A stretch of 59,585 nucleotides of DNA, from positions 1 to 59,585 of the forward strand of contig JAZTYU010000002.1 of the NCBI GenBank assembly GCA_045637165.1, given 5' to 3'. Positions 1,262-12,019 of this stretch are shown here, piece by piece; position 1 is the stretch's first letter, and each line of letters opens with the position of its first letter. A model generated the notes under the pieces. That model saw only the letters and a list, made by a program, of their open reading frames with translations. It did not search any database and was not told where the DNA came from. The translations under genes were made by a program, and so were the position numbers. Origin of the DNA: Candidatus Enterousia sp. (lineage in GTDB: Bacteria; Pseudomonadota; Alphaproteobacteria; Rs-D84).

Positions 1262-1306
1262 TTTGTAATCAGTAGGTCGTTGGTTCAAGTTCGACAACCG
1301 ACACCA
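1262..1306 (+). pseudogene. tRNA-Thr(UGU)-like 3' half (anticodon loop to CCA) with no 5' half; probable att-site remnant
   Basis: Loop TTTGTAA (U33, anticodon TGT, A37); variable AGGTC; T-arm GTTGG-TTCAAGT-TCGAC (3 WC + 2 GU); acceptor 3' strand AACCGAC; discriminator A; CCA. No matching anticodon-stem 5' strand, D-arm or acceptor 5' strand upstream. Confidence 0.55.
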
Positions 1307-1312
1307 GAATAA

Positions 1313-1337
1313 CCCCTTGATTCAAGGGGATTTTTTA
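1313..1337 (+). terminator. Rho-independent terminator just after the tRNA fragment
   Basis: Stem 1313-1319/1323-1329 (CCCCTTG/CAAGGGG), 3-nt loop, then ATTTTTT. Confidence 0.6.
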
Positions 1338-1484
1338 TTGTTTTAACCGCCCTTGAAAACTTGACGAATATTTTTTTGCTACGTATCTGCTACCGTGAAT
1401 TTCCGCGATATTTATACGCATGTATATTAACTTATTTTATTTAAAACACAACTCAAATCCGTTAACAACCAATTTTGGATATAA

Positions 1485-2024
1485 TTATTTCGCAAAGACA
1501 AAATCATCTGGAACTTCGTTTTTTACATCTATACGAAAGCCAGAACTGGTCAAAATCTGAATTTTTATCTTGTTCAAATTGTTTTTTCCAAAGATGTTTT
1601 TACCGATTGGGAAACCTATTGTGCCACGTGGCGGAACGGCCATATTGTCCCCTGGCGCAGCAAAAATCGGTTTTGAGTTTTTTGCGGTGCAATTATCCTT
1701 ATTTGACCACCACAATGCATAACAATCCCACGTTTCAGCCGTATGGTATTTGTCAGACCCCAAATATACGGTATGATTGCCCTTGTTACGTATCATTATG
1801 CACATTTTCTTTTTTCTAATGCACAATGTCGCCTCTAATTTATCACGTGGCACGTACGGGAACAAACTCAAAATTATAACCCCGCAGGTTCCCAGCGCAG
1901 TCATGGCCGTTACAACAAACATGCCCAAATCCCCCATATCCCCATACCGAACATGTAATATCCCTGCAATAATAACACACAGCAACAATACACAAAACAC
2001 TATACCAGCGGTCAAATTTCGCAT
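1485..2024 (-). CDS. 179-aa membrane protein (two N-terminal TM helices plus a soluble tail of about 110 aa), coupled to the upstream ATPase-DUF4435 gene
   Basis: Hydrophobic stretches GIVFCVLLLCVIIAGIL and MFVVTAMTALGTCGVIILSLF. AAGGAG 5 nt upstream overlaps the stop of the preceding gene; 9-nt gap. Confidence 0.6.
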   Translation of the reverse strand: MRNLTAGIVFCVLLLCVIIAGILHVRYGDMGDLGMFVVTAMTALGTCGVIILSLFPYVPRDKLEATLCIRKKKMCIMIRNKGNHTVYLGSDKYHTAETWDCYALWWSNKDNCTAKNSKPIFAAPGDNMAVPPRGTIGFPIGKNIFGKNNLNKIKIQILTSSGFRIDVKNEVPDDFVFAK

Positions 2025-2033
2025 ATTCGCTCC

Positions 2034-3635
2034 TTAATTGGGTATTTTATCGGACGTTGGCATATACGGACGTAAGGCCTCCTTAATATCATTATGCTTA
2101 TCGCCACGAAATAAATTGACAACCAAATTTATATACTCATCACCTTTAGGTAAACCAAAATTTTTTCCGATACTACTGGCAAGCCCCTTGCGATTAAATA
2201 AACGCAAAATATTATCATTATTATTGACATCACAATTATATTTCTCTGAAATCACACGTTCTATTTCCGCGTATTGCCCAATCACCCCGTCTATTTCATC
2301 CTTGCTTATCGCATGCTTTATACGATGTTTCAGCTCAGCAAGAACAGCTTGCCGTATTTGTCTTTCCTTATCCCGTTCAAATTCATTTTTTATATAATCA
2401 CAAGAAAATGTAACTGCTCTTTCATCAGGTTTACACAATTGTTGATTAATTATTCTCAAAACACCGTCTGTACAGAACAGGTTTTCCACTTCTGCGACAC
2501 CAATCACAAAAACCTTGTCTTGTTCCAAAGCACGTATTTCATCATCTGTGCGATAATCCCTATCAATTAACCCAAAACAATCAAGATGATGTAATTGTGG
2601 TTCACTACGCATAGCCCTTACATTTTGAACAACATTTGAACAAGACCCGCATGGAACAACATAATATTTTGAAAAAAATTCAGAATACACCGCAACATCC
2701 CAACTGCTGTCAGTTCCTTCCACAAACAAAACCTTTCTTCGGGCACCCAATATATCCATCATCAACTGTTGTGACAGTTCGCTTTCTTTTGGTATATCTT
2801 CGTATTCCCATGCATCACCATCAAAACTTTTTACCCAAATTTTATCTGATGCTTTGTGATTGGCGGCAAAAGTTGTATCGTGGGTGATGTAAATGAACAA
2901 GCAATCTGGACGCACTTTTTCCATCTCTGTCCATAATTTATTCATAACGGAATGATGCATATGAATTTCCGGTTCATCAATTATAATTGTATGCCCACTG
3001 GGAACACACAAACATTGGGCCATCAAATATAATACTGCCTTTTCACCGTCACTCATCTCAGTGCCGGCGTATTCCGTATCAACCCCAAACTTGATAACGA
3101 CTTGATAATCCTTTAAAACAATCTGTCTATGTGACATAATTTTATTCCAAGTATTTATCAAAACATCAATTTCGCTATCCTCTACACGGGGCATTTCTTT
3201 GTGTTCAATTTGCGCTTGTCGTGCTTTATCCCTAAAGTCGGCGCTTTGTGACATATGCCTTGCAAAGAGTAAAGCCATAACATCATCGCAATCATTCAAT
3301 TCATGCGTTGTGTACTCTGGCCGTCTCAAATCACGCGAATATCCCCAGCGCGACAATTTTGAGTCTGATTGCTTGTCTTCCGCACCATACAACAACTTAT
3401 TCAAAGCAGCGTGTTCAGATTTAACAGGAATATGTTTCGTAAAATTTAAGGCACGCTGACCTGAAATCCTATGAACATTTTGCAAATTTTTATCTTCCAT
3501 CCATGCTCCCAAACGACTTTTACCCGAGCCATTTGCACCTATAATGATTAAAGAATTTTGTTCCGTTGTGCGATGTTCTATCCCTTCAGGATTTTCTGCT
3601 GTTTTTGAAACTGGTAATTGATACGAAAAGGCCAT
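2034..3635 (-). CDS. ABC-type ATPase fused to a DUF4435/Toprim-like domain (PARIS AriA-AriB-like / OLD-like single-chain protein)
   Basis: Walker A GANGSGKS, MSDGEK signature-like, Walker B IIIDEPE, ITHD H-loop. C-terminal VLFVEGTDSSWD, GLIDRDYR and AEVENLF. Confidence 0.7.
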   Translation of the reverse strand: MAFSYQLPVSKTAENPEGIEHRTTEQNSLIIIGANGSGKSRLGAWMEDKNLQNVHRISGQRALNFTKHIPVKSEHAALNKLLYGAEDKQSDSKLSRWGYSRDLRRPEYTTHELNDCDDVMALLFARHMSQSADFRDKARQAQIEHKEMPRVEDSEIDVLINTWNKIMSHRQIVLKDYQVVIKFGVDTEYAGTEMSDGEKAVLYLMAQCLCVPSGHTIIIDEPEIHMHHSVMNKLWTEMEKVRPDCLFIYITHDTTFAANHKASDKIWVKSFDGDAWEYEDIPKESELSQQLMMDILGARRKVLFVEGTDSSWDVAVYSEFFSKYYVVPCGSCSNVVQNVRAMRSEPQLHHLDCFGLIDRDYRTDDEIRALEQDKVFVIGVAEVENLFCTDGVLRIINQQLCKPDERAVTFSCDYIKNEFERDKERQIRQAVLAELKHRIKHAISKDEIDGVIGQYAEIERVISEKYNCDVNNNDNILRLFNRKGLASSIGKNFGLPKGDEYINLVVNLFRGDKHNDIKEALRPYMPTSDKIPN

Positions 3636-3677
3636 CTTACTTTTACCCCTTTATTATTGACAATAACTTATGCACAG

Positions 3678-3705
3678 TATATAGGTAAAAACTCAGATTT
3701 TTCAA
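3678..3705 (-). promoter_or_regulatory. Candidate sigma70 promoter for the ATPase-DUF4435 operon
   Basis: On the minus strand: TTGAAA (3700-3705), 16-nt spacer, TATATA (3678-3683), about 43 nt upstream of the ATG. Confidence 0.3.
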
Positions 3706-3956
3706 TGATACCACGCCAATATTTTATAGAAAACATCACTATTCTGTCCGCCATGCACAACAAAGAGCATTCCCCCATATATATAATATATTCTAGTCCC
3801 TAAAGGGGGACAAAACCCGGGAAATTCTAGGTTGTTTCACAAACACTATGCCGCACGACGCAGGCACTCCAAAGCCCCGCAAGCCCTGATATTCTCGGCT
3901 GTTTGCGACATTTCACGAACAAACTGATTCCAACTTTCTCCGATAAGGTGCACCAG

Positions 3957-3987
3957 TTAAAAAACGCACCATTTGGTGCGTTTTTTT
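3957..3987. terminator. Bidirectional terminator hairpin
   Basis: Stem CGCACC/GGTGCG (3965-3970/3975-3980), loop ATTT, flanked by an A-run and a T7 run. Confidence 0.6.
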
Positions 3988-4044
3988 GTTTGATTTTCCC
4001 TGCCCTTTTGATTTTTATGTTTGGTGTGCCACCCGGGCGGGGTA

Positions 4045-4803
4045 TTATCTGGTTTTACGACGTGTTGTTTTCTTTGCTTTTTCTTGAACAGCGCTTAATT
4101 CGGCCGCGGCACATTCAGCATCAAGCAATTTAAGCCCGTTCGATATTTCCAACATCCTGTCCAGTGACGGAGATGCAGTTTGTAATTTATCAATTTTTTT
4201 GCACAAATCCCCCAACCGTTTCAAATCAAAAGACATACATTTTTGTGCATTATTAAGTGAATCAATATGGGAATTATATGCATCTTCTGCATGCATTTCG
4301 GGAGTAATCAAGGGTGGAAATTTTGCCATCACTGTCGTCCATGGCAATGATGAGCCCTGAAGCCATTGCCAAGTTTCATCAGAACCCCGGCGTTCACGTG
4401 TGGTACGATGATATATAGAACACAATGATTCTATCATTAATCGCTGTGTGGCACGTTCCAGCATGGATATAGCATAATTGATATGCGTTAAACTTTCATA
4501 AACATTATGGGCAAGATTACTGACCGCTTCGGCAATGGGCAAGGTTAATTCCAGAACATTGTTTGTGTAAAAATATGGAATATTGTCCGCATGCAATGGC
4601 AACTTAAAACCCTCTATTTCATCGTAATCGTGCCAATTACGTTTTAATTTCTTGTAGTTTTCGCAATCATGTTCGCCCGTTACGGCATCTGCAACCGCCC
4701 GGTTTGCTTGCTGCTGGGTTTTAAAATAATATCTGCCGCGATAACACCCCGAGAAAGAATCAATAACACGGGCCTCCTTGTTGCTGGGCATGTTATACAT
4801 CAA
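4045..4803 (-). CDS. 252-aa hypothetical protein, monocistronic, inside the defence island
   Basis: Long ORF with its own flanking spacers and a Lys/Arg-rich C-terminus. No motif that I recognise. Confidence 0.65.
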   Translation of the reverse strand: MMYNMPSNKEARVIDSFSGCYRGRYYFKTQQQANRAVADAVTGEHDCENYKKLKRNWHDYDEIEGFKLPLHADNIPYFYTNNVLELTLPIAEAVSNLAHNVYESLTHINYAISMLERATQRLMIESLCSIYHRTTRERRGSDETWQWLQGSSLPWTTVMAKFPPLITPEMHAEDAYNSHIDSLNNAQKCMSFDLKRLGDLCKKIDKLQTASPSLDRMLEISNGLKLLDAECAAAELSAVQEKAKKTTRRKTR

Positions 4804-4944: not shown

Positions 4945-5877
4945 GTGATTGCTATACCCGCTAGATTGCCGGATTATGTTGATTGCAAACCTGTCTTGAA
5001 ATGGGCTGGTGGCAAGGGGCAGTTATTGGACCAAATCGAACCTAAATTGCCATTAAAACTGAAAATGGGTGGCATCAAACGCTATATTGAACCGTTTGTT
5101 GGTGGCGGTGCTGTGTTCTTTGATATCTATAATAAATACCAAATCCAAGAAGCATATTTGTTCGATATCAATCCTGAATTGGTTATTCTGTACAATGTTA
5201 TCAAGCATAATGTTGATGAATTGATTGTTGAATTAACCAAATTGCAGACAGAATATCGATTGACCGAAAATCAAAAAGAATACTATTACGCACGTCGTGA
5301 TGAATATAATGAATTCGACAAAGATATCGATGCGAATGTCTATCGTACCGGTTTTGTTCGCCGTGCGGCATTGACGATATTCTTGAACCGGACTTGCTTT
5401 AATGGCCTGTTCCGTGTGAACAGCAAGAATAAGTTCAATGTTCCAATGGGCAAATATACAAACCCACGCATATTAGATGCAGAAAACCTGCGTAATGTGT
5501 CTGATGCTTTGCAGATTGCAACCATCATTCAGGGCGACTTTGGCAATACATCAAAGTATGTGACGGATAATACATTTATATACTACGACCCACCATATCG
5601 CCCAATTCGTGAGACTTCGTCATTTAATTCATATGCGGTTGGCGACTTTGACGACAATGAACAAATTAGATTAAAGAATGTTTTTGACGCCTGTCATCAA
5701 ATGGGGGCTTTGCAGATGTTAAGCAATTCCGACCCAACAAATTATGTTGACGACCCGTTCTTTGACGACCTGTACCAAGATTATAAGATAAATCGCATTA
5801 TGGCCAAGCGGCTGATAAATTCCAAGGCGGACGGTCGTGATGCAATTCGGGAACTTTTGATTACAAATTATGAATAA
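4945..5877 (+). CDS. Dam-like (D12 class, alpha) N6-adenine DNA methyltransferase
   Basis: LKWAGGKGQLL, EPFVGGGAVFF (FxGxG) and YYDPPY motifs. GTG start after AAAGGAAAGGA. Confidence 0.9.
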   Translation: MIAIPARLPDYVDCKPVLKWAGGKGQLLDQIEPKLPLKLKMGGIKRYIEPFVGGGAVFFDIYNKYQIQEAYLFDINPELVILYNVIKHNVDELIVELTKLQTEYRLTENQKEYYYARRDEYNEFDKDIDANVYRTGFVRRAALTIFLNRTCFNGLFRVNSKNKFNVPMGKYTNPRILDAENLRNVSDALQIATIIQGDFGNTSKYVTDNTFIYYDPPYRPIRETSSFNSYAVGDFDDNEQIRLKNVFDACHQMGALQMLSNSDPTNYVDDPFFDDLYQDYKINRIMAKRLINSKADGRDAIRELLITNYE

Positions 5878-6649
5878 GAAACAGTATCGACTTTATTGTG
5901 AAGATTGCCTGAAAAAGTTAGCCAAAATCCCCGAAAACACTTTTGACATGATTTTTGCGGACCCACCATACATGCTGTCCAACGGTGGTATCACCTGCCA
6001 GAATGGTTGTGTTGTTTCTGTGAACAAAGGCGATTGGGATAAATCGCATGGTCTTAGTGAAGATTTTGAGTTTCATAAAAAGTGGCTGTGTGCTTGTCAT
6101 CGTGTATTAAAGCCAAATGGCACATTGTGGGTCAGCGGTACATATCACAGTATTTATTCATGTGGCTATGCGATGCAGTTATTGGGTTTTCATATCTTGA
6201 ACGACATTACTTGGTTTAAGCCAAATGCCAGCCCGAATATGTCTTGTCGCTATTTTACGGCCAGCCATGAAACATTACTGTGGGCCAGAAAGGACAAGAA
6301 ATCTAAGCATACTTTCAACTATGAAGCGATGAAGAACGGTGATTTCCCAAAAGACTTCATTAAAAAACCAGGGTGTCAAATGCGTAGTGTTTGGGCAATT
6401 GGCACACCGACCATGGCCGAAAAAATACATGGGAAGCATCCAACACAGAAACCACTAGAATTATTGGAACGCATAGTCTTGGCATCAACCAATCCTGGCG
6501 ATTTGATTCTGGACCCGTTTATGGGCAGTGGCACAACCGGTGTCGCCGCACTAAAACATGGCCGCCGCTTTGTTGGCATAGACATGGAATCACAATTTGT
6601 TGAATTGGCTGAAAAAAGATTATATGATGCATCTGAAAAGAAGGATTAA
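5870..6649 (+). CDS. Beta-class N6/N4 DNA methyltransferase
   Basis: N-terminal IFADPPY and C-terminal DPFMGSGTTGVAA. 8-nt overlap with the upstream MTase. Confidence 0.9.
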   Translation: MNKKQYRLYCEDCLKKLAKIPENTFDMIFADPPYMLSNGGITCQNGCVVSVNKGDWDKSHGLSEDFEFHKKWLCACHRVLKPNGTLWVSGTYHSIYSCGYAMQLLGFHILNDITWFKPNASPNMSCRYFTASHETLLWARKDKKSKHTFNYEAMKNGDFPKDFIKKPGCQMRSVWAIGTPTMAEKIHGKHPTQKPLELLERIVLASTNPGDLILDPFMGSGTTGVAALKHGRRFVGIDMESQFVELAEKRLYDASEKKD

Positions 6650-6652
6650 AAA

Positions 6653-7195
6653 ATGAAAGCAAATGGTATTGGTGGTGCAAACACTAAAACAGGATTAGTT
6701 TTTGAAGGTAAAACAGACTTGCGTACATTCCTGTGTAGTCAGCCGGGATATGATTGTGTTGATGACAAACGTGGCTGGGTTTCTGTTTTGTACCAAGATA
6801 AAGAAGTAGCATCTATTTTCAAGAAAACGGCATTATATAAATTCTTGGAATACCGTGGCGTTGATTGGAAAACAATATTGTCAAAACGCTTGTTGCCAGA
6901 TGATTCTATCTATGTAGTTATCAATAACACATTTTTTATCATAGAATGTAAATTTCAACAGGTTGCTGGTTCTGTTGATGAAAAATTACAAACTTGTGAC
7001 TTTAAGAAAAAACAATATAAGAAATTGCTGGCGCAGTTAAATATGGAAGTTGAATACATCTATTTGTTAAGCGATTGGTTCAAACAGCCATGTTATCAGG
7101 ATGTATTGGATTACATTATATCAGTTGGATGCTCATATTATTTTGAATATATACCATTACAGAAATTTGGTTTGCCGGTTCCGAAAGGCGATTAA
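6653..7195 (+). CDS. Putative small type II restriction endonuclease (PD-ExK)
   Basis: LLPDDSIYV ... FFIIECK gives a PD-(D/E)xK arrangement. Starts 3 nt after the MTase stop. Confidence 0.55.
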   Translation: MKANGIGGANTKTGLVFEGKTDLRTFLCSQPGYDCVDDKRGWVSVLYQDKEVASIFKKTALYKFLEYRGVDWKTILSKRLLPDDSIYVVINNTFFIIECKFQQVAGSVDEKLQTCDFKKKQYKKLLAQLNMEVEYIYLLSDWFKQPCYQDVLDYIISVGCSYYFEYIPLQKFGLPVPKGD

Positions 7196-7210: not shown

Positions 7211-8305
7211 ATGAGAAGTACTTTCAAAGAATTTGCACGATTAGAGGGCGAAGAATTAAAAAATTTTTTTAATGATGCTGTTATTGTATTTGATACAAAT
7301 ATCTTATTAAGCTTGTATACTATTTCAGATAAGGCGAAAGTAGATGTTTTTGACATGATGAAGGCTCTTGAATGTCAACTATGGTTGCCACATAAGGTTG
7401 CGGAAGAGTTTTATTGTTCGCGTCCCCAAAAAATGGATGAAGCGTATATATTTAGAAAAGCAGTGTTTACTTTGTTAGATAATGCGGTTAAGCAGACGTC
7501 TGACAGATGTTGTTTTTATAAAGAGTTGTCCAAAAGTGTTGCTAATTTAAAGGAACACATAGATAAAATTATACTATCGCGTAAACAAGATTATGAAACT
7601 GATACAGTTGTTGATACGTTAGAAAAGTACTTTGAAGGAAAAGTTGGGGATAAGTTTTCTGATGAACGATACGAAGAAATAGAAAACGAATTTCAGAAAC
7701 GGATTAACAATAAAGATAATTGCCCTGGCGGACAAGATAAGCAAAAAAAGTTTAATTCTAGCGGTGATTATATTATTTGGAATCAAATGATAGAACATTC
7801 AAAAGAAATACAAAAAAACATTATTTTTGTTACAGATGAACAAAAGTCTGACTGGTGTGCAAAAATTGGTGAACAGAAAGTAGCTAGACCAGATTTGTTA
7901 ATTGAATTTAAGAAAAAAACAGATGGTTGTTTAATTAAAATTTATAATTTCGAACACTTTTCAGAAGTGTATAACAAACAAAAAACTAATAAAATAAATA
8001 AAGAAACCACAAAAGAAGTTAAAGAGCATATATCGTCTAGTGAAAAGATGTTAAGGTCTTTAAATAAATGGAGTCGTATGTTGGCAAAGCAATCAGAAAT
8101 TTATAAAAATTTAACCTTTAGCGACGCTCTGCTTAATAACATTAATTCTGCACGTCATTTATCAGATATTACATCTCAAATGAATACCTATAACGAGGCA
8201 GCAAAGGCTTGTATTTTTCCTTCATACATGCCTGTTCAAGCAGACTTGTTTGGACAAGAGAATATCCTTTCTCCCGAAGAACTTTTTGGAAGTAAAGACC
8301 CCTGA
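7211..8305 (+). CDS. PIN-like (DUF4935-type) domain protein, last gene of the R-M operon
   Basis: AVIVFDTNILLSLY, LPHKVAEEF and IIFVTDEQKSDW acidic motifs. AAGGAA upstream; 15-nt gap after the nuclease gene. Confidence 0.6.
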   Translation: MRSTFKEFARLEGEELKNFFNDAVIVFDTNILLSLYTISDKAKVDVFDMMKALECQLWLPHKVAEEFYCSRPQKMDEAYIFRKAVFTLLDNAVKQTSDRCCFYKELSKSVANLKEHIDKIILSRKQDYETDTVVDTLEKYFEGKVGDKFSDERYEEIENEFQKRINNKDNCPGGQDKQKKFNSSGDYIIWNQMIEHSKEIQKNIIFVTDEQKSDWCAKIGEQKVARPDLLIEFKKKTDGCLIKIYNFEHFSEVYNKQKTNKINKETTKEVKEHISSSEKMLRSLNKWSRMLAKQSEIYKNLTFSDALLNNINSARHLSDITSQMNTYNEAAKACIFPSYMPVQADLFGQENILSPEELFGSKDP

Positions 8306-8941: not shown

Positions 8942-11900
8942 TTAAAATTCATACCTGAAATTCATACGACCTGTTTGAGAGGTATAGTTTGAACGTGCCT
9001 GAATGTCATAATTTAATGATATTTCCAGACCGTTATAGTTTGTGCCTATGCCAAGACCAACCTCGTTCGCAATGCGTGATAAATGCTGACTATTCAACAC
9101 ATACGAATTTACCCCTGGCATTGAAACCAACATAGTGTTTTCATCAGATATTAAATCGTATTTGATTGCATAATGCAACTGGGGACGAATTATCCAACCA
9201 TTGTTCATAAAGATATCAAATTCATATTTGGTGGATAATGATGCAGTCAAATAATCCGCACCGTCCATATGATTTTTTATACCCAATGAATTAGTATAGT
9301 CTGATGAATTTATGTGCATATATTCCATTGCTAATTCTGGGGTTATGCCGCCAATGAAATCATACCCACTGGCAAGACGTGCACCAAAAGTGTCGATATC
9401 ATAATCTGATGTGACACCAACATTAAATGCCCTGCCCCGTTCGTTATAATCGGACATTGTATAGTTTACAATCGCACTGGCATACCATTGACTGGGCTTA
9501 TACTGTCCATAGACGAATACAGTCGACGAATCAACGTCTGTATCACGGCTGATGGCACTGATGTCCGAATGTGCAAACATATATCCCATACCCAATGTCC
9601 AGACTTCGTTTATAGTTCCATCAACACCCAGTGCAACACCACGTGTATAACCGTTAAAGTTATCATTTAATTTTGACTTGTTATATAAGCCTTGGGCCCA
9701 AACACCACCAAAATCAAGATTCGCATCACCACCACTGCGTCCAAGTCCTGACATAGCCAGACGATTTGAAAGCAAGGTCGAAATTGTGTGCTGTGATGAG
9801 GTGGCAACAGACTGGGGGATGGCCGCCCGTTCTGGATTTATTGCCAGCCCTGTCTGTTCAACAGACGCAAGATCAGATGGTGTGCCAGATGATAACTTTT
9901 CCTGGAATGCAACAGACAAATCATTCAATCGTGCAGACGATGATTCTGATACACTGGAAATTACACGGGCTGTGTCTTGGGTTATGTTGTTTTCCTGGGC
10001 AATATCAGATACAGACTTTGTCGTTGCTGTGACAGCCCCACCATTCCAGGTTAAATCATAGACCGAACTGCTGATGTCAACATTATCAAAAGTCTGATTA
10101 CCAAAAACCTGGTATGTGCCAGCATGGTCAAATGACAGTTTTAATTTGCCGTTGCCTGTAAAACCGCCGTCATTATTGACCGTAATTTGGCCAGTTTCAC
10201 CACTGCGTAATGTCGCCAACATCGTTCCGTCCAAAGCAATCGCACCTTGGGTTATGTCAGATGTGCCTATATTCAATGTTGTGCCAGACGCAATGTTCAA
10301 TGTCCCTGTGCCTGTTATGCCACCGTTTAATGTTGTATCGCCATTGAAATTGACGGTGCCATCGTTATGGATATCATTGGCCACGCCGCCAGCGGTATTT
10401 CCAGAAAAGACGGTTGTGCCATTAAATGTCATGGTGTCATTATTATAGACCGCCCCACCAATACCACCGGCAGAGTTATTGCGGAATGTTGTGTTGCCAT
10501 TAAACACGATTGTTGATGTGCCTGTTGTGCCGTTATCAGCGGCAACTGCATTCCATATTGCACCGCCGTCCATTGCAGACGTATTGCCAGAAAATGTTGT
10601 CGTACCGTTGACCACAATGTCTGAATTTGCAGTATCGCCATCAAATGCACGTGCAACAATTGCACCACCATAGGCATTGGATTTGTTTGACGTAAATGTA
10701 TTTACGCTGTCGCTAGTGCCGATAATTAAACTGGCGGTATTTGTGTTGCCACGATTATGAATTGCACCGCCACCGCTTTTTATGTTCCCTGTATCACTTG
10801 CAACGTTGTTCGAAAATGTATTTTTAGCAGATAATAAAGTTAAATCACCAGCATTAAAGATTGCACCACCATATCCTGAGTCTGATTTGTTCCCTGTGAA
10901 CGATATCTGGGACGCATCAAATGTTATGCTGCCGCCGTTGTCCAAGGCACCGGCGGTGCTGGTTGTAGTGTTTGAACTAAACAATATTTTACCAGTTGTG
11001 TCTGCTGTTATGGTGCCTGAATTTTTCAGACCGCCACCATTGCTGCCGGTATTATTGGTAAACGTCATATCACCAGCACTCAATGAAACGTTGCCGGTAT
11101 TTACCAGTGCACCGTTATACGTGTTTGTGTTATTGTTAAAATCTGCACCATTTGCAAATATAACTGATGCATTTGCAGAGTTGTTCAACAATGTTCCAAC
11201 ACCTGAATTTTCTGAAAAGATAGCTGTGCCTTTGAATTCAAGGGTCTGGGCATTTTCAGATAAATATATTGCAGATGCACCACCTGCTGAATTCTTTGTA
11301 AAAGTCGTCGCCGCATCAAATGTTGTATTGCCACCCATTATCGCCAATGCACCACCATTTTTTGTTGCTGTATTATTTGCAAATGATGTTGGGCCATTGA
11401 ATATTATATCACCTGCGCTTAAAACTGCACCGCCCTGGGACGCAGATTCATTACCTGAAAAATTTGCGGCACCATTAAAGATAATCATACCATTGCGATG
11501 ATTGATTGCACCGCCACCTGCATAAACACCATTCATTGACTGGGTGACCAGGTTGTTTGCAAATTCTGCGTCTTCAAAAAATATAATATCTGGGTTGGTG
11601 GCATTGCCCATACCATAGTTAAATATCGCACCACCGCCATTTGCGTTATTGGTGCTGTTGTCTGCAAAGGTTGTTGGACCAGCAAATAAAATCTTGCCAC
11701 CTTGGGTGTAGCCAGAGCCTGATGTTGATGCCAACCAACCATTTCCTATAACCCCACCCATACCGCCATTATTTAATGAATTTCCAGAAAATAATGTTTC
11801 GCCCTGAAATGCCAGAACAACGTCTGGGACATCTTGCATATAAAATACGCCGCCGTTGTTCGCAGTCGTAGATGCAATATTTTCAGCAACAGCATCTGTA

Positions 11901-12019
11901 TAAGTTGTATCCGTTGAAATTACCTGGCGTTGGGTAATTGTTTCAGCCATTGCCGGCATTATAAATAACGCAGGCAAGACTGATACACCAATCAAAGTAT
12001 TGTAAAAGTGTTTTTTCAT
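8942..12019 (-). CDS. Autotransporter with polymorphic-membrane-protein (Pmp) type GGA[ILV]/FxxN repeats
   Basis: Signal peptide MKKHFYNTLIGVSVLPALFIMPAMA. More than 10 GGAI/GGAV plus FSGN/FTNN repeats. C-terminal beta-domain ends RYEF. Confidence 0.85.
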   Translation of the reverse strand: MKKHFYNTLIGVSVLPALFIMPAMAETITQRQVISTDTTYTDAVAENIASTTANNGGVFYMQDVPDVVLAFQGETLFSGNSLNNGGMGGVIGNGWLASTSGSGYTQGGKILFAGPTTFADNSTNNANGGGAIFNYGMGNATNPDIIFFEDAEFANNLVTQSMNGVYAGGGAINHRNGMIIFNGAANFSGNESASQGGAVLSAGDIIFNGPTSFANNTATKNGGALAIMGGNTTFDAATTFTKNSAGGASAIYLSENAQTLEFKGTAIFSENSGVGTLLNNSANASVIFANGADFNNNTNTYNGALVNTGNVSLSAGDMTFTNNTGSNGGGLKNSGTITADTTGKILFSSNTTTSTAGALDNGGSITFDASQISFTGNKSDSGYGGAIFNAGDLTLLSAKNTFSNNVASDTGNIKSGGGAIHNRGNTNTASLIIGTSDSVNTFTSNKSNAYGGAIVARAFDGDTANSDIVVNGTTTFSGNTSAMDGGAIWNAVAADNGTTGTSTIVFNGNTTFRNNSAGGIGGAVYNNDTMTFNGTTVFSGNTAGGVANDIHNDGTVNFNGDTTLNGGITGTGTLNIASGTTLNIGTSDITQGAIALDGTMLATLRSGETGQITVNNDGGFTGNGKLKLSFDHAGTYQVFGNQTFDNVDISSSVYDLTWNGGAVTATTKSVSDIAQENNITQDTARVISSVSESSSARLNDLSVAFQEKLSSGTPSDLASVEQTGLAINPERAAIPQSVATSSQHTISTLLSNRLAMSGLGRSGGDANLDFGGVWAQGLYNKSKLNDNFNGYTRGVALGVDGTINEVWTLGMGYMFAHSDISAISRDTDVDSSTVFVYGQYKPSQWYASAIVNYTMSDYNERGRAFNVGVTSDYDIDTFGARLASGYDFIGGITPELAMEYMHINSSDYTNSLGIKNHMDGADYLTASLSTKYEFDIFMNNGWIIRPQLHYAIKYDLISDENTMLVSMPGVNSYVLNSQHLSRIANEVGLGIGTNYNGLEISLNYDIQARSNYTSQTGRMNFRYEF

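Follow-up and report, generated by a model that had tools for sequence, protein, structure and literature searches.

Among the closest described systems, the phage anti-restriction-induced system (PARIS) of Escherichia coli B185 relies on the proteins AriA and AriB, on small acidic or anti-restriction phage proteins as triggers, and on an ATP-dependent activation that leads to tRNA cleavage and growth arrest (PMC11464382). Fusions of the two genes into a single ariAB gene were already reported by Rousset 2022 (PMC9122126), and Burman 2024 defines two such merged clades ("merged 1/2") out of 11 PARIS clades (PMC11464382). Here, we analysed a locus in a 59,585-nucleotide (nt) stretch of DNA from Candidatus Enterousia sp. 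(hereafter, the window), where two open reading frames (ORFs) on the minus strand encode a protein of 533 amino acids (aa) and, just downstream, a protein of 179 aa with two transmembrane (TM) helices, which we call the 2-TM protein. The large protein is almost certainly AriAB, the merged PARIS protein, and so belongs to a known subtype. Taken as a whole, the locus probably combines this known gene with a portable, essentially autonomous, and uncharacterised membrane module.

The 533-aa protein compared with described systems

The closest match of the large protein is with merged PARIS. Both are single chains of ~520 to 560 aa in which an AAA_21-type ABC ATPase forms the N-terminal part and a DUF4435/Toprim domain the C-terminal part, no catalytic residue is missing, and the gene lies in a defence island adjoining a restriction-modification (R-M) module. 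The match to the curated AriAB model of PADLOC (PDLC02982, 9.9e-132) spans the full length, aligning residues 22 to 527 with profile positions 41 to 566 of 570. The separate AriA and AriB models of PADLOC match their own halves (AriB with 1.8e-17), and the full-length PHROGs family phrog_25246 matches with 2e-116. An earlier sequence-only reading of the locus had recognised an ABC ATPase and a DUF4435/Toprim domain in one chain and had drawn the analogy with PARIS; this much is fully borne out, since Pfam finds AAA_21 above its gathering score in the ATPase half (1.7e-10) and DUF4435 (PF14491) at residues 302 to 483 (2.8e-18, 67 bits against a cutoff of 27). The motifs that it had pointed out are all at the expected residues: Walker A GANGSGKS (33 to 40), the signature MSDGEK (194 to 199), Walker B IIIDEPE (217 to 223), the H-loop ITHD (250 to 253), and three Toprim-like acidic motifs, VLFVEGTDSSWD (302 to 313), GLIDRDYR (355 to 362), and AEVENLF (381 to 387). 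Two features set the window protein apart from merged PARIS: its clade has a conserved, operon-fused 2-TM gene downstream, which is found in no described PARIS, and its host is an uncultured gut alphaproteobacterium.

Across 38 homologues, the ATPase residues G33-S40 (including K39), Q60, S195-E198, D220-E221, and H252 are invariant, as are the Toprim acidic residues E306, D358, D360, E382, and E384; both activities of AriAB are therefore predicted to be intact. The idea of a degenerate nuclease replaced by a membrane effector was ruled out on the same grounds. A word-indexed search gave 1,917 clusters of homologues at E<=1e-20. Among the 120 matches listed, all are 521 to 562 aa long and contain PF14491 and PF13304, and the named members of the family include Bacteroidales, Clostridia, Helicobacteraceae, and Fusobacterium. 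In DefenseFinder, this AAA_21-type merged form goes by the name PARIS_II_merge. The sequence-only reading had regarded the single-chain arrangement as undescribed and as part of a distinct system. For the large protein, neither claim holds because an AriAB model exists in PADLOC and the fusions are in the literature (Rousset 2022, PMC9122126; Burman 2024, PMC11464382). By itself, the large protein is a further merged PARIS and brings no novelty.

With the PARIS of E. coli B185 (AriA6:AriB3 stoichiometry, Ocr and Ptr as triggers, cleavage of tRNA-Lys), the window protein shares the AAA_21-type ATPase, the DUF4435 domain with its Toprim acidic residues, and even the number of the Walker A lysine, K39. 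It differs in that its halves are fused, in a divergence so large that neither phmmer nor hmmsearch finds the solved chains, and in the length of its ATPase half, ~300 residues against a 55-kDa AriA. Because of this last difference, the helical insertions that build the hexamer are maybe shortened. OLD and GajA have the same order of domains, ABC ATPase and then Toprim, in a single chain, and in Foldseek, most of the AlphaFold2 (AF2) model of AriAB (predicted local distance difference test [pLDDT] 91.2, predicted template modeling score 0.81) can be aligned with GajA (8x5i) and OLD (6p74). However, the Toprim half of the window protein matches DUF4435 and not OLD-like_TOPRIM (PF20469; no match), and the GajA profiles match only a segment of the ATPase (residues ~173 to 238, 9.7e-8). 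The window also differs from Gabija systems in having no GajB/UvrD partner and no adjacent helicase gene. In total, the AriAB model has 186 Foldseek matches in PDB at E<=1e-3, which fall in the OLD/GajA/PtuA ATPase clade, with PtuA (from Septu and retrons), GajA, OLD, and Rad50 at the top. Finally, the AriAB proteins linked to a 2-TM gene have no docking insertion, merely deletions of 1 to 6 residues, and we discarded a clade-specific insertion of this kind.

The 2-TM protein and the contexts of its family

What is new in this locus is the accessory gene: its family, which has no name, makes up a co-evolving cassette together with one PARIS clade and stands as the last gene of other complete defence operons. 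The 179-aa protein has hydrophobic peaks at residues 5 to 23 and 37 to 55. Its AF2 model (pLDDT 80) has helices at residues 2 to 27 and 30 to 54, followed by an all-beta domain at residues 63 to 169 whose eight to nine strands form an immunoglobulin (Ig)-like sandwich. Hydropathy and AF2 agree on the two N-terminal hydrophobic helices and the soluble tail of the sequence-only reading. The loop between the helices is short (~6 to 8 residues, GDMGDLG) and acidic, and the charges after TM2 are 7 K/R against 2 D/E. Because of the hydropathy, the acidic loop, and this excess of K/R, the protein would have an N-in/C-in topology, with the beta domain in the cytoplasm.

The 2-TM ORF is a real gene under strong constraint, as supported by the ratio of nonsynonymous to synonymous substitutions (dN/dS), the confident fold, and the invariant TM2. 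The overall range of dN/dS is 0.025 to 0.16. In three unsaturated pairs, the values are 0.025, 0.083, and 0.066 for the 2-TM gene and 0.20, 0.14, and 0.18 for AriAB, i.e., purifying selection on the small gene is stronger than on AriAB in these pairs. Throughout the family, down to 28% identity, TM2 is the most constrained part and carries the invariant motif A43-x-G45-T46-C47-(G48)-V49, in which G48 is nearly invariant; P56, D61, T159, and G162 are also invariant, and the histidines of the beta domain are not conserved. Such a constrained face of small and polar residues in TM2 suggests oligomer packing or the lining of a pore.

The family is small and unnamed. The 179-aa protein has no match in Pfam, NCBIfam, PADLOC (where no family matches at E<=0.1), or PHROGs, and none of the weak Pfam signals is consistent across 18 family members. 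Foldseek searches of PDB and BFVD with its model gave nothing below E=1e-3; ranked first were generic Ig-like sandwiches and chains of Kir channels, whose TM-scores do not exceed 0.38. An exhaustive HMMER scan of 1.84 billion representatives yielded 13 clusters (50% identity), among which two long matches, P0148 and P0150, were tandem-repeat proteins that we discarded as spurious. An iterated profile gave 53 clusters (90% level), all of 171 to 199 aa and none with a name; the one named relative is a "hypothetical protein [Alphaproteobacteria bacterium]." Among 185,579 species-representative genomes we found four family loci, all in uncultured (alpha)proteobacterial metagenome-assembled genomes (MAGs) from gut or rumen. 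Collections of 50,697 phage and 72,556 plasmid records and IMG/VR contained no homologue, and an origin from phages, plasmids, or prophages found no match there. This narrow host range, uncultured Alphaproteobacteria of gut or rumen, limits the immediate impact of the family.

In the window, the junction between the two genes reads ...AAT TAA GGA GCG AAT ATG, i.e., the 2-TM gene starts 9 nt after the ariAB stop, behind an AAGGAG that overlaps it. The sequence-only reading had seen this, without stating that the genes are on the minus strand, and the operon coupling that it proposed holds. The junction contains neither a promoter nor a terminator. All eight distinct AriAB lineages that we examined at >=54% identity to the window AriAB (the window, L018, L006-9, L022, L029/30, L031/32, and L033-35, where L numbers denote other loci) have a 2-TM gene 1 to 9 nt downstream, and comparable junctions of 1 to 4 nt with purine-rich runs similar to Shine-Dalgarno sequences are found in L006-9, L022, L029, L031, and L033. 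The recurrence of 179-aa homologues downstream of ATPase-DUF4435 fusions is thereby confirmed. In the window, the two ORFs share a reading frame, being separated by the TAA and three codons. A fusion by stop-codon readthrough was ruled out; programmed readthrough is unlikely because the in-frame spacing is not conserved, the gaps in other loci being 1, 3, and 4 nt.

The linked pairs occur in at least four neighbourhoods, and their surroundings include R-M; Cpn60/outer membrane protein (OMP) to KAP NTPase; DnaJ/ParB; Colicin_V to Peptidase_U32; and Cas2/Cas1. Neighbor-joining trees of AriAB and of the 2-TM protein have the same topology, and their pairwise identities correlate with r=0.95 over 28 pairs. 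The pair also moves together. Positions 1262 to 4040 of the window and 4820 to 7597 of L018, a MAG locus, form a single collinear block of 2.78 kb with 94.1% identity by blastn, whereas the other genes common to both (at 41.1 to 43.8 kb of the window) are ~71% identical and lie at a different distance; the pair was thus transferred recently and in one piece. Next in similarity come AriABs at 52% (from a Bacteroidales MAG) and 48% identity, which have no 2-TM gene; these are the two that we checked at <=52% identity. In the Bacteroidales locus (L036, 5906-7325), AriAB is followed by a 253-aa gene and a gene of the PF14373 family (Imm_superinfect, a T4 Imm-like membrane protein); here too, merged PARIS may be paired with a protein that acts in exclusion at the membrane.

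Many copies of the 2-TM gene are found away from AriAB. In L005, a cyclase gene (PADLOC 5e-102, AGS_C) ends 20 nt before it, in an operon that holds its own 2TM/SLATT-type effector (1.7e-37) and is a complete type I cyclic-oligonucleotide-based antiphage signaling system (CBASS). In L001-4, it is preceded by TIR (PDC-S35, 2e-77) and Fic (PDC-S72, 2.6e-100) genes and a 150-aa ORF; in L025 and L026, by Old-like ATPase, D12 methyltransferase, and HNH genes; and in L014-17, by a 118-aa ORF beside Gabija. No tightly linked gene precedes it in L019-21, L037, and L038, a group that includes the most divergent members of the family. Because these most divergent members stand alone, the autonomy of the module is suggested to be ancestral. 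The stand-alone loci adjoin tRNA-Asn or tRNA-Thr, type I R-M, or an integrase. We found no homology among the 118-, 124-, and 150-aa ORFs that precede other 2-TM copies, nor between two 252-aa ORFs, and for most other pairs of loci homology is limited to the 2-TM gene itself. Two of these architectures look like unclassified defence operons: that of L026 (1295-6534), with an Old-like ATPase-Toprim protein, a 622-aa D12 methyltransferase, a 387-aa HNH_2 protein, and then the 2-TM gene, and that of L019 (8001-9412), where a Trypsin_2 protein, weakly similar to LmuA, starts 2 nt after the 2-TM gene.

One pair of loci documents an exchange. L005 (7000-9501) and L029 (5572-8057) are orthologous, with 78% DNA homology that runs from the start codon of the 2-TM gene through the downstream genes. 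Upstream of it, they are unrelated, with type I CBASS at L005 and AriAB at L029, and the breakpoint of the swap is exactly at the ATG of the 2-TM gene. In the neighbor-joining tree, the CBASS-linked copy nests inside the AriAB-linked clade.

Several membrane protein families invite comparison with the 2-TM protein. The Cap15- and SLATT/2TM-type effectors of CBASS and Pycsar also have two N-terminal TM helices and a small all-beta domain that would be cytoplasmic, and the 2-TM gene is, like theirs, last in defence operons, with one homologue 20 nt after a cGAS/DncV-like nucleotidyltransferase. They differ in that the 2-TM protein has an Ig-like sandwich rather than a minimal beta-barrel and that most of its copies have no nucleotide cyclase nearby: a cyclase is present in 1 of ~15 contexts, and that locus (L005) has its own effector. 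An alignment of the 179-aa protein with this SLATT-type effector by hhalign gave a probability of 0.25%. An effector of the Cap15 or SLATT type was ruled out, with no SLATT match in PADLOC or Pfam and no Cap15 among the Foldseek matches in PDB. We also ruled out a channel of the Kir/KirBac type, given the lack of a pore loop between the TM helices, TM-scores of 0.20 to 0.30, and E>=1.4e-3. Concerning superinfection-exclusion proteins (T4 Imm-like, Sie), the 179-aa protein has no match to PF14373 or in PHROGs; a functional analogy with them is possible.

Autonomous module, partner, or flanking gene

If the locus is a known merged PARIS gene with an autonomous membrane module, the two genes would form one operon, with a promoter near position 3700 and hairpins at both ends, carried by a horizontally moving block of 2.78 kb. 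By analogy with characterised PARIS, AriAB would most likely be an ATP-dependent sensor of a trigger encoded by the phage (an anti-restriction protein or another small acidic one), and its activated Toprim nuclease would cut host tRNA, leading to translation arrest and aborted infection. Activation by release of AriB is not literally applicable because AriAB is a fusion. The 2-TM protein would be a portable and essentially autonomous module of membrane-level defence or exclusion, most likely oligomerising through the invariant face of TM2 and perturbing or gating the membrane under the control of the beta domain. Its gene may have joined ariAB in a single capture, early in one AriAB clade at its base, and may then have been inherited with it, being co-expressed with ariAB as a second, parallel layer of defence and probably not as an obligatory subunit.

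Some points weigh against this interpretation. The strict co-occurrence, tight spacing, co-divergence, and co-transfer of the two genes fit a physical partnership equally well. The defence-island setting of the 2-TM family comes from ~15 distinct contexts and is anecdotal, not a statistical enrichment, and the topology of the 179-aa protein has the positive-inside rule as its one basis. As for AriAB, its trigger, RNA target, and mode of activation are extrapolated from AriA and AriB of E. coli B185, and the solved chains of these proteins are hard to reach from it: in sequence searches, phmmer finds nothing and the profile reaches only the ATPase of retron Ec83. In the structural comparison that the sequence-only reading had outlined, GajA is matched; AriA and AriB are not among the best 50 of the 186 Foldseek matches.

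One alternative, which we regard as unlikely though well worth weighing, is that this AriAB clade has in the 2-TM protein a genuine third functional element. It could be an anchor that keeps AriAB at the inner membrane, the site of arrival of phage DNA and early proteins, or a second, membrane-depolarising effector that activated AriAB turns on; the latter would offset the inability of a fused nuclease to leave its scaffold and would defeat phages with rescue tRNAs. The unbroken linkage in the eight lineages, with purine-rich runs at the short junctions, the congruent trees, and the joint transfer are in line with a partnership, as are the purifying selection on the 2-TM gene, stronger than on AriAB, and the Ig-like domain, a typical protein-binding fold that would face the cytoplasm. 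Still, co-divergence and co-transfer need no partnership because tight linkage alone accounts for them. The same family stands behind unrelated, self-sufficient systems and also alone, the CBASS-linked copy lies within the AriAB-linked clade, and the swap between L005 and L029 breaks at the 2-TM ATG. More than 1,900 AriAB clusters face 13 to 53 of the 2-TM family, the two distant AriABs that we checked do without it, the nuclease residues of AriAB are intact, and no clade-specific insertion was found. The membrane-partner system of the sequence-only reading stands, then, for linkage in one narrow AriAB clade; it fails for a general or exclusive partner of PARIS, given the other contexts and the distant AriABs without a 2-TM gene. 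A distinct sensor-nuclease plus membrane-partner system is possible for that narrow clade, and it is not the best-supported reading.

With yet lower confidence, one may see the 179-aa protein as a partner-agnostic plug-in, a membrane executioner or amplifier that would attach at the 3' end of mechanistically unrelated immune sensors (merged PARIS, CBASS, TIR/Fic, and Old-MTase-HNH) and would be an integral second effector in the AriAB clade. If this doubtful reading were true, sensor activation, or a shared consequence of it such as the collapse of translation or energy, would be converted into membrane failure. It would also provide a kill route independent of tRNA, by which a fused AriAB would still abort infection and resist phages with rescue tRNAs.

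It is improbable that the 2-TM gene is unrelated to defence and encodes a lineage-specific membrane protein that flanks tRNA-linked integration hotspots, where defence cargo is exchanged. L005 and L029 do have the 2-TM gene and the genes downstream in common despite the exchange of the upstream system, several loci have a tRNA-Thr or tRNA-Asn gene next to it (with a tRNA-Thr relic in the window), and Peptidase_U32 and OMP genes recur near several of its copies. Similar patterns are known from partner-swapping toxin-antitoxin or defence modules and from hotspot-delimiting genes, where one conserved gene has many unrelated neighbours, with breakpoints at a gene boundary, and the 2-TM gene resembles these also in its position beside tRNA genes and integrases. 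It differs from them in that no toxin or antitoxin domain was detected, that it also occurs alone, and that it is itself mobile rather than a fixed core flank. Against a flanking role, at least six unrelated neighbourhoods contain the gene, which can point either way with respect to the tRNA and U32 genes, and it is not core because it was found in only 4 of the 185,579 species-representative genomes. It travels with AriAB at 94% identity against ~71% for other shared genes, most pairs of loci are homologous in this gene alone, and it is fused into operons with defence genes at 1 to 20 nt, not separately transcribed. A flank of the core genome is largely ruled out by the many neighbourhoods, the patchy presence, and the travel with AriAB. 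Last, an undescribed sensor-nuclease and membrane-partner system distinct from PARIS, OLD, and Gabija, as first proposed, is very improbable: our literature search found such a membrane partner in no described PARIS, OLD, or Gabija and PADLOC has no match for it, but the curated AriAB model fits the large protein from end to end, the same architecture is found in more than 1,900 clusters, and such fusions were described in 2022 and 2024.

Coming back to an autonomous module beside a known AriAB, the consequences depend on whether the 2-TM gene is defensive. If it is, compact membrane modules could be interchangeable as terminal parts between unrelated immune systems, or, alternatively, the gene could be an unrecognised single-gene membrane defence of gut Alphaproteobacteria. 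The 2-TM gene also offers a natural handle on the activation of merged AriAB, with the same clade being comparable with and without the partner.

Operon signals, mobile block, and neighbouring genes

The features of the locus are collected in the table.

Table. Features of the ariAB/2-TM locus and its surroundings in the window
Feature	Position	Strand	Basis or remark
Mobile block: terminator, leader, promoter, ariAB, 2-TM gene, hairpin, tRNA-Thr 3' fragment	1262..4040	-	blastn against L018
tRNA-Thr(TGT), 3' ~45 nt, anticodon loop to CCA	1262..1306	-	alignment with the intact tRNA-Thr of L018 at the same place
GC-rich hairpin CCCCTTGAATCAAGGGG, 155 nt past the 2-TM stop	1313..1329	.	T-tail good on + strand, weak on - strand
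Orphan inner-membrane protein, 179 aa	1485..2024	-	AF2, hydropathy, family search, dN/dS
TM1 ~5-27, short acidic loop, TM2 ~34-55, Ig-like beta-sandwich ~63-169	residues of the 179-aa protein		
TM2 motif region (residues 43-56 of the 179-aa protein)	1860-1900		
Junction: AAGGAG Shine-Dalgarno overlapping TAA, 5 nt to ATG at 2024	2025..2035	-	sequence
ariAB ORF, 533 aa	2034..3635	-	
AriAB residues 299-533 and stop codon, DUF4435/Toprim (AriB-like) nuclease half	2034..2741	-	PF14491, PADLOC AriB, acidic residues
AriAB residues 1-298, ABC-type ATPase (AriA-like) half	2742..3635	-	Pfam AAA_21, PADLOC AriAB, motifs, Foldseek
Leader between upstream terminator and ariAB, ~320 nt	3636-3958		
Sigma-70-like promoter candidate TTGAAA-18-TATACT, ~40 nt 5' of ariAB start	3705->3676	-	consensus match only, 10/12
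Perfect hairpin, 13-bp arms, A and T runs on flanks, bidirectional terminator	3959..3986	.	12 pairs and T-tail; repeat I16, arms 100% complementary
252-aa ORF, TTG start	4045-4803	-	
R-M module: Dam-type methyltransferase, CcrM-like N6/N4 methyltransferase, 180-aa PDDEXK_11 protein	4945-7195	+	
364-aa PIN_8 protein	7211-8305	+	3.6e-40
1,025-aa autotransporter	8942-12019	-	Autotransporter beta-domain 8.2e-30

The promoter candidate starts where the piece containing the two genes ends, at 3705. Across the region, promoter-like sites are not above expectation (17 against 13.4 +/- 3.8 in shuffled sequences). The perfect hairpin separates the operon from the upstream 252-aa gene and insulates it, and the GC-rich hairpin past the 2-TM gene, which is kept in L018, is likely the end of the operon. 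The leader is unusually long and relatively GC-rich. It is similar to L018 solely as part of the 94% block and has no Rfam family, with one sub-threshold match that is terminator-like. In other AriAB-linked loci, the upstream gaps are of 270 to 930 nt, and DNA similarity to the window leader is undetectable. The sequence-only reading had placed the genes in an AT-rich island next to an R-M operon. The R-M operon is there, and the richness in AT is slight: the cassette has 38.8% GC against a window mean of 41.4% (standard deviation 2.3%), and 13% of windows of the same size are equally low.

The block shared with L018 ends inside the 3' half of tRNA-Thr, just past the terminal hairpin of the operon. 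This fragment is a unique match in the window, where none is expected by chance and where ARAGORN finds no intact tRNA. Because the block ends exactly at the fragment, it suggests the relic of an att site left by integrase-mediated movement of the island. A tRNA-Thr or tRNA-Asn gene lies beside the 2-TM gene in L018, L007/8, L033, L020, L019, L038, and L001. Repeats flanking the block were at chance level only, the best being a 28-nt inverted pair with 71% complementarity.

The end of the 252-aa ORF upstream of the operon lies 5 nt beyond the edge of the transferred block. Searches of Pfam, NCBIfam, PADLOC, and PHROGs gave no match for this ORF, and L018 does not conserve it. The R-M-like module has 77 to 83% DNA identity to its counterpart in L010-12 (L010, 9547-12429), where it is convergent to a 2-TM homologue, includes an extra 179-aa gene, and is followed by a HATPase_c_3 protein in place of PIN_8. 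The PIN_8 protein comes directly after the PDDEXK gene and lies in the stretch of lowest GC of the region (28 to 33%); PADLOC does not recognise it, and it may therefore be a nuclease of the defence island that has yet to be classified. The cluster of defence genes ends with the autotransporter, which has repeats of the Chlamydia-PMP type.

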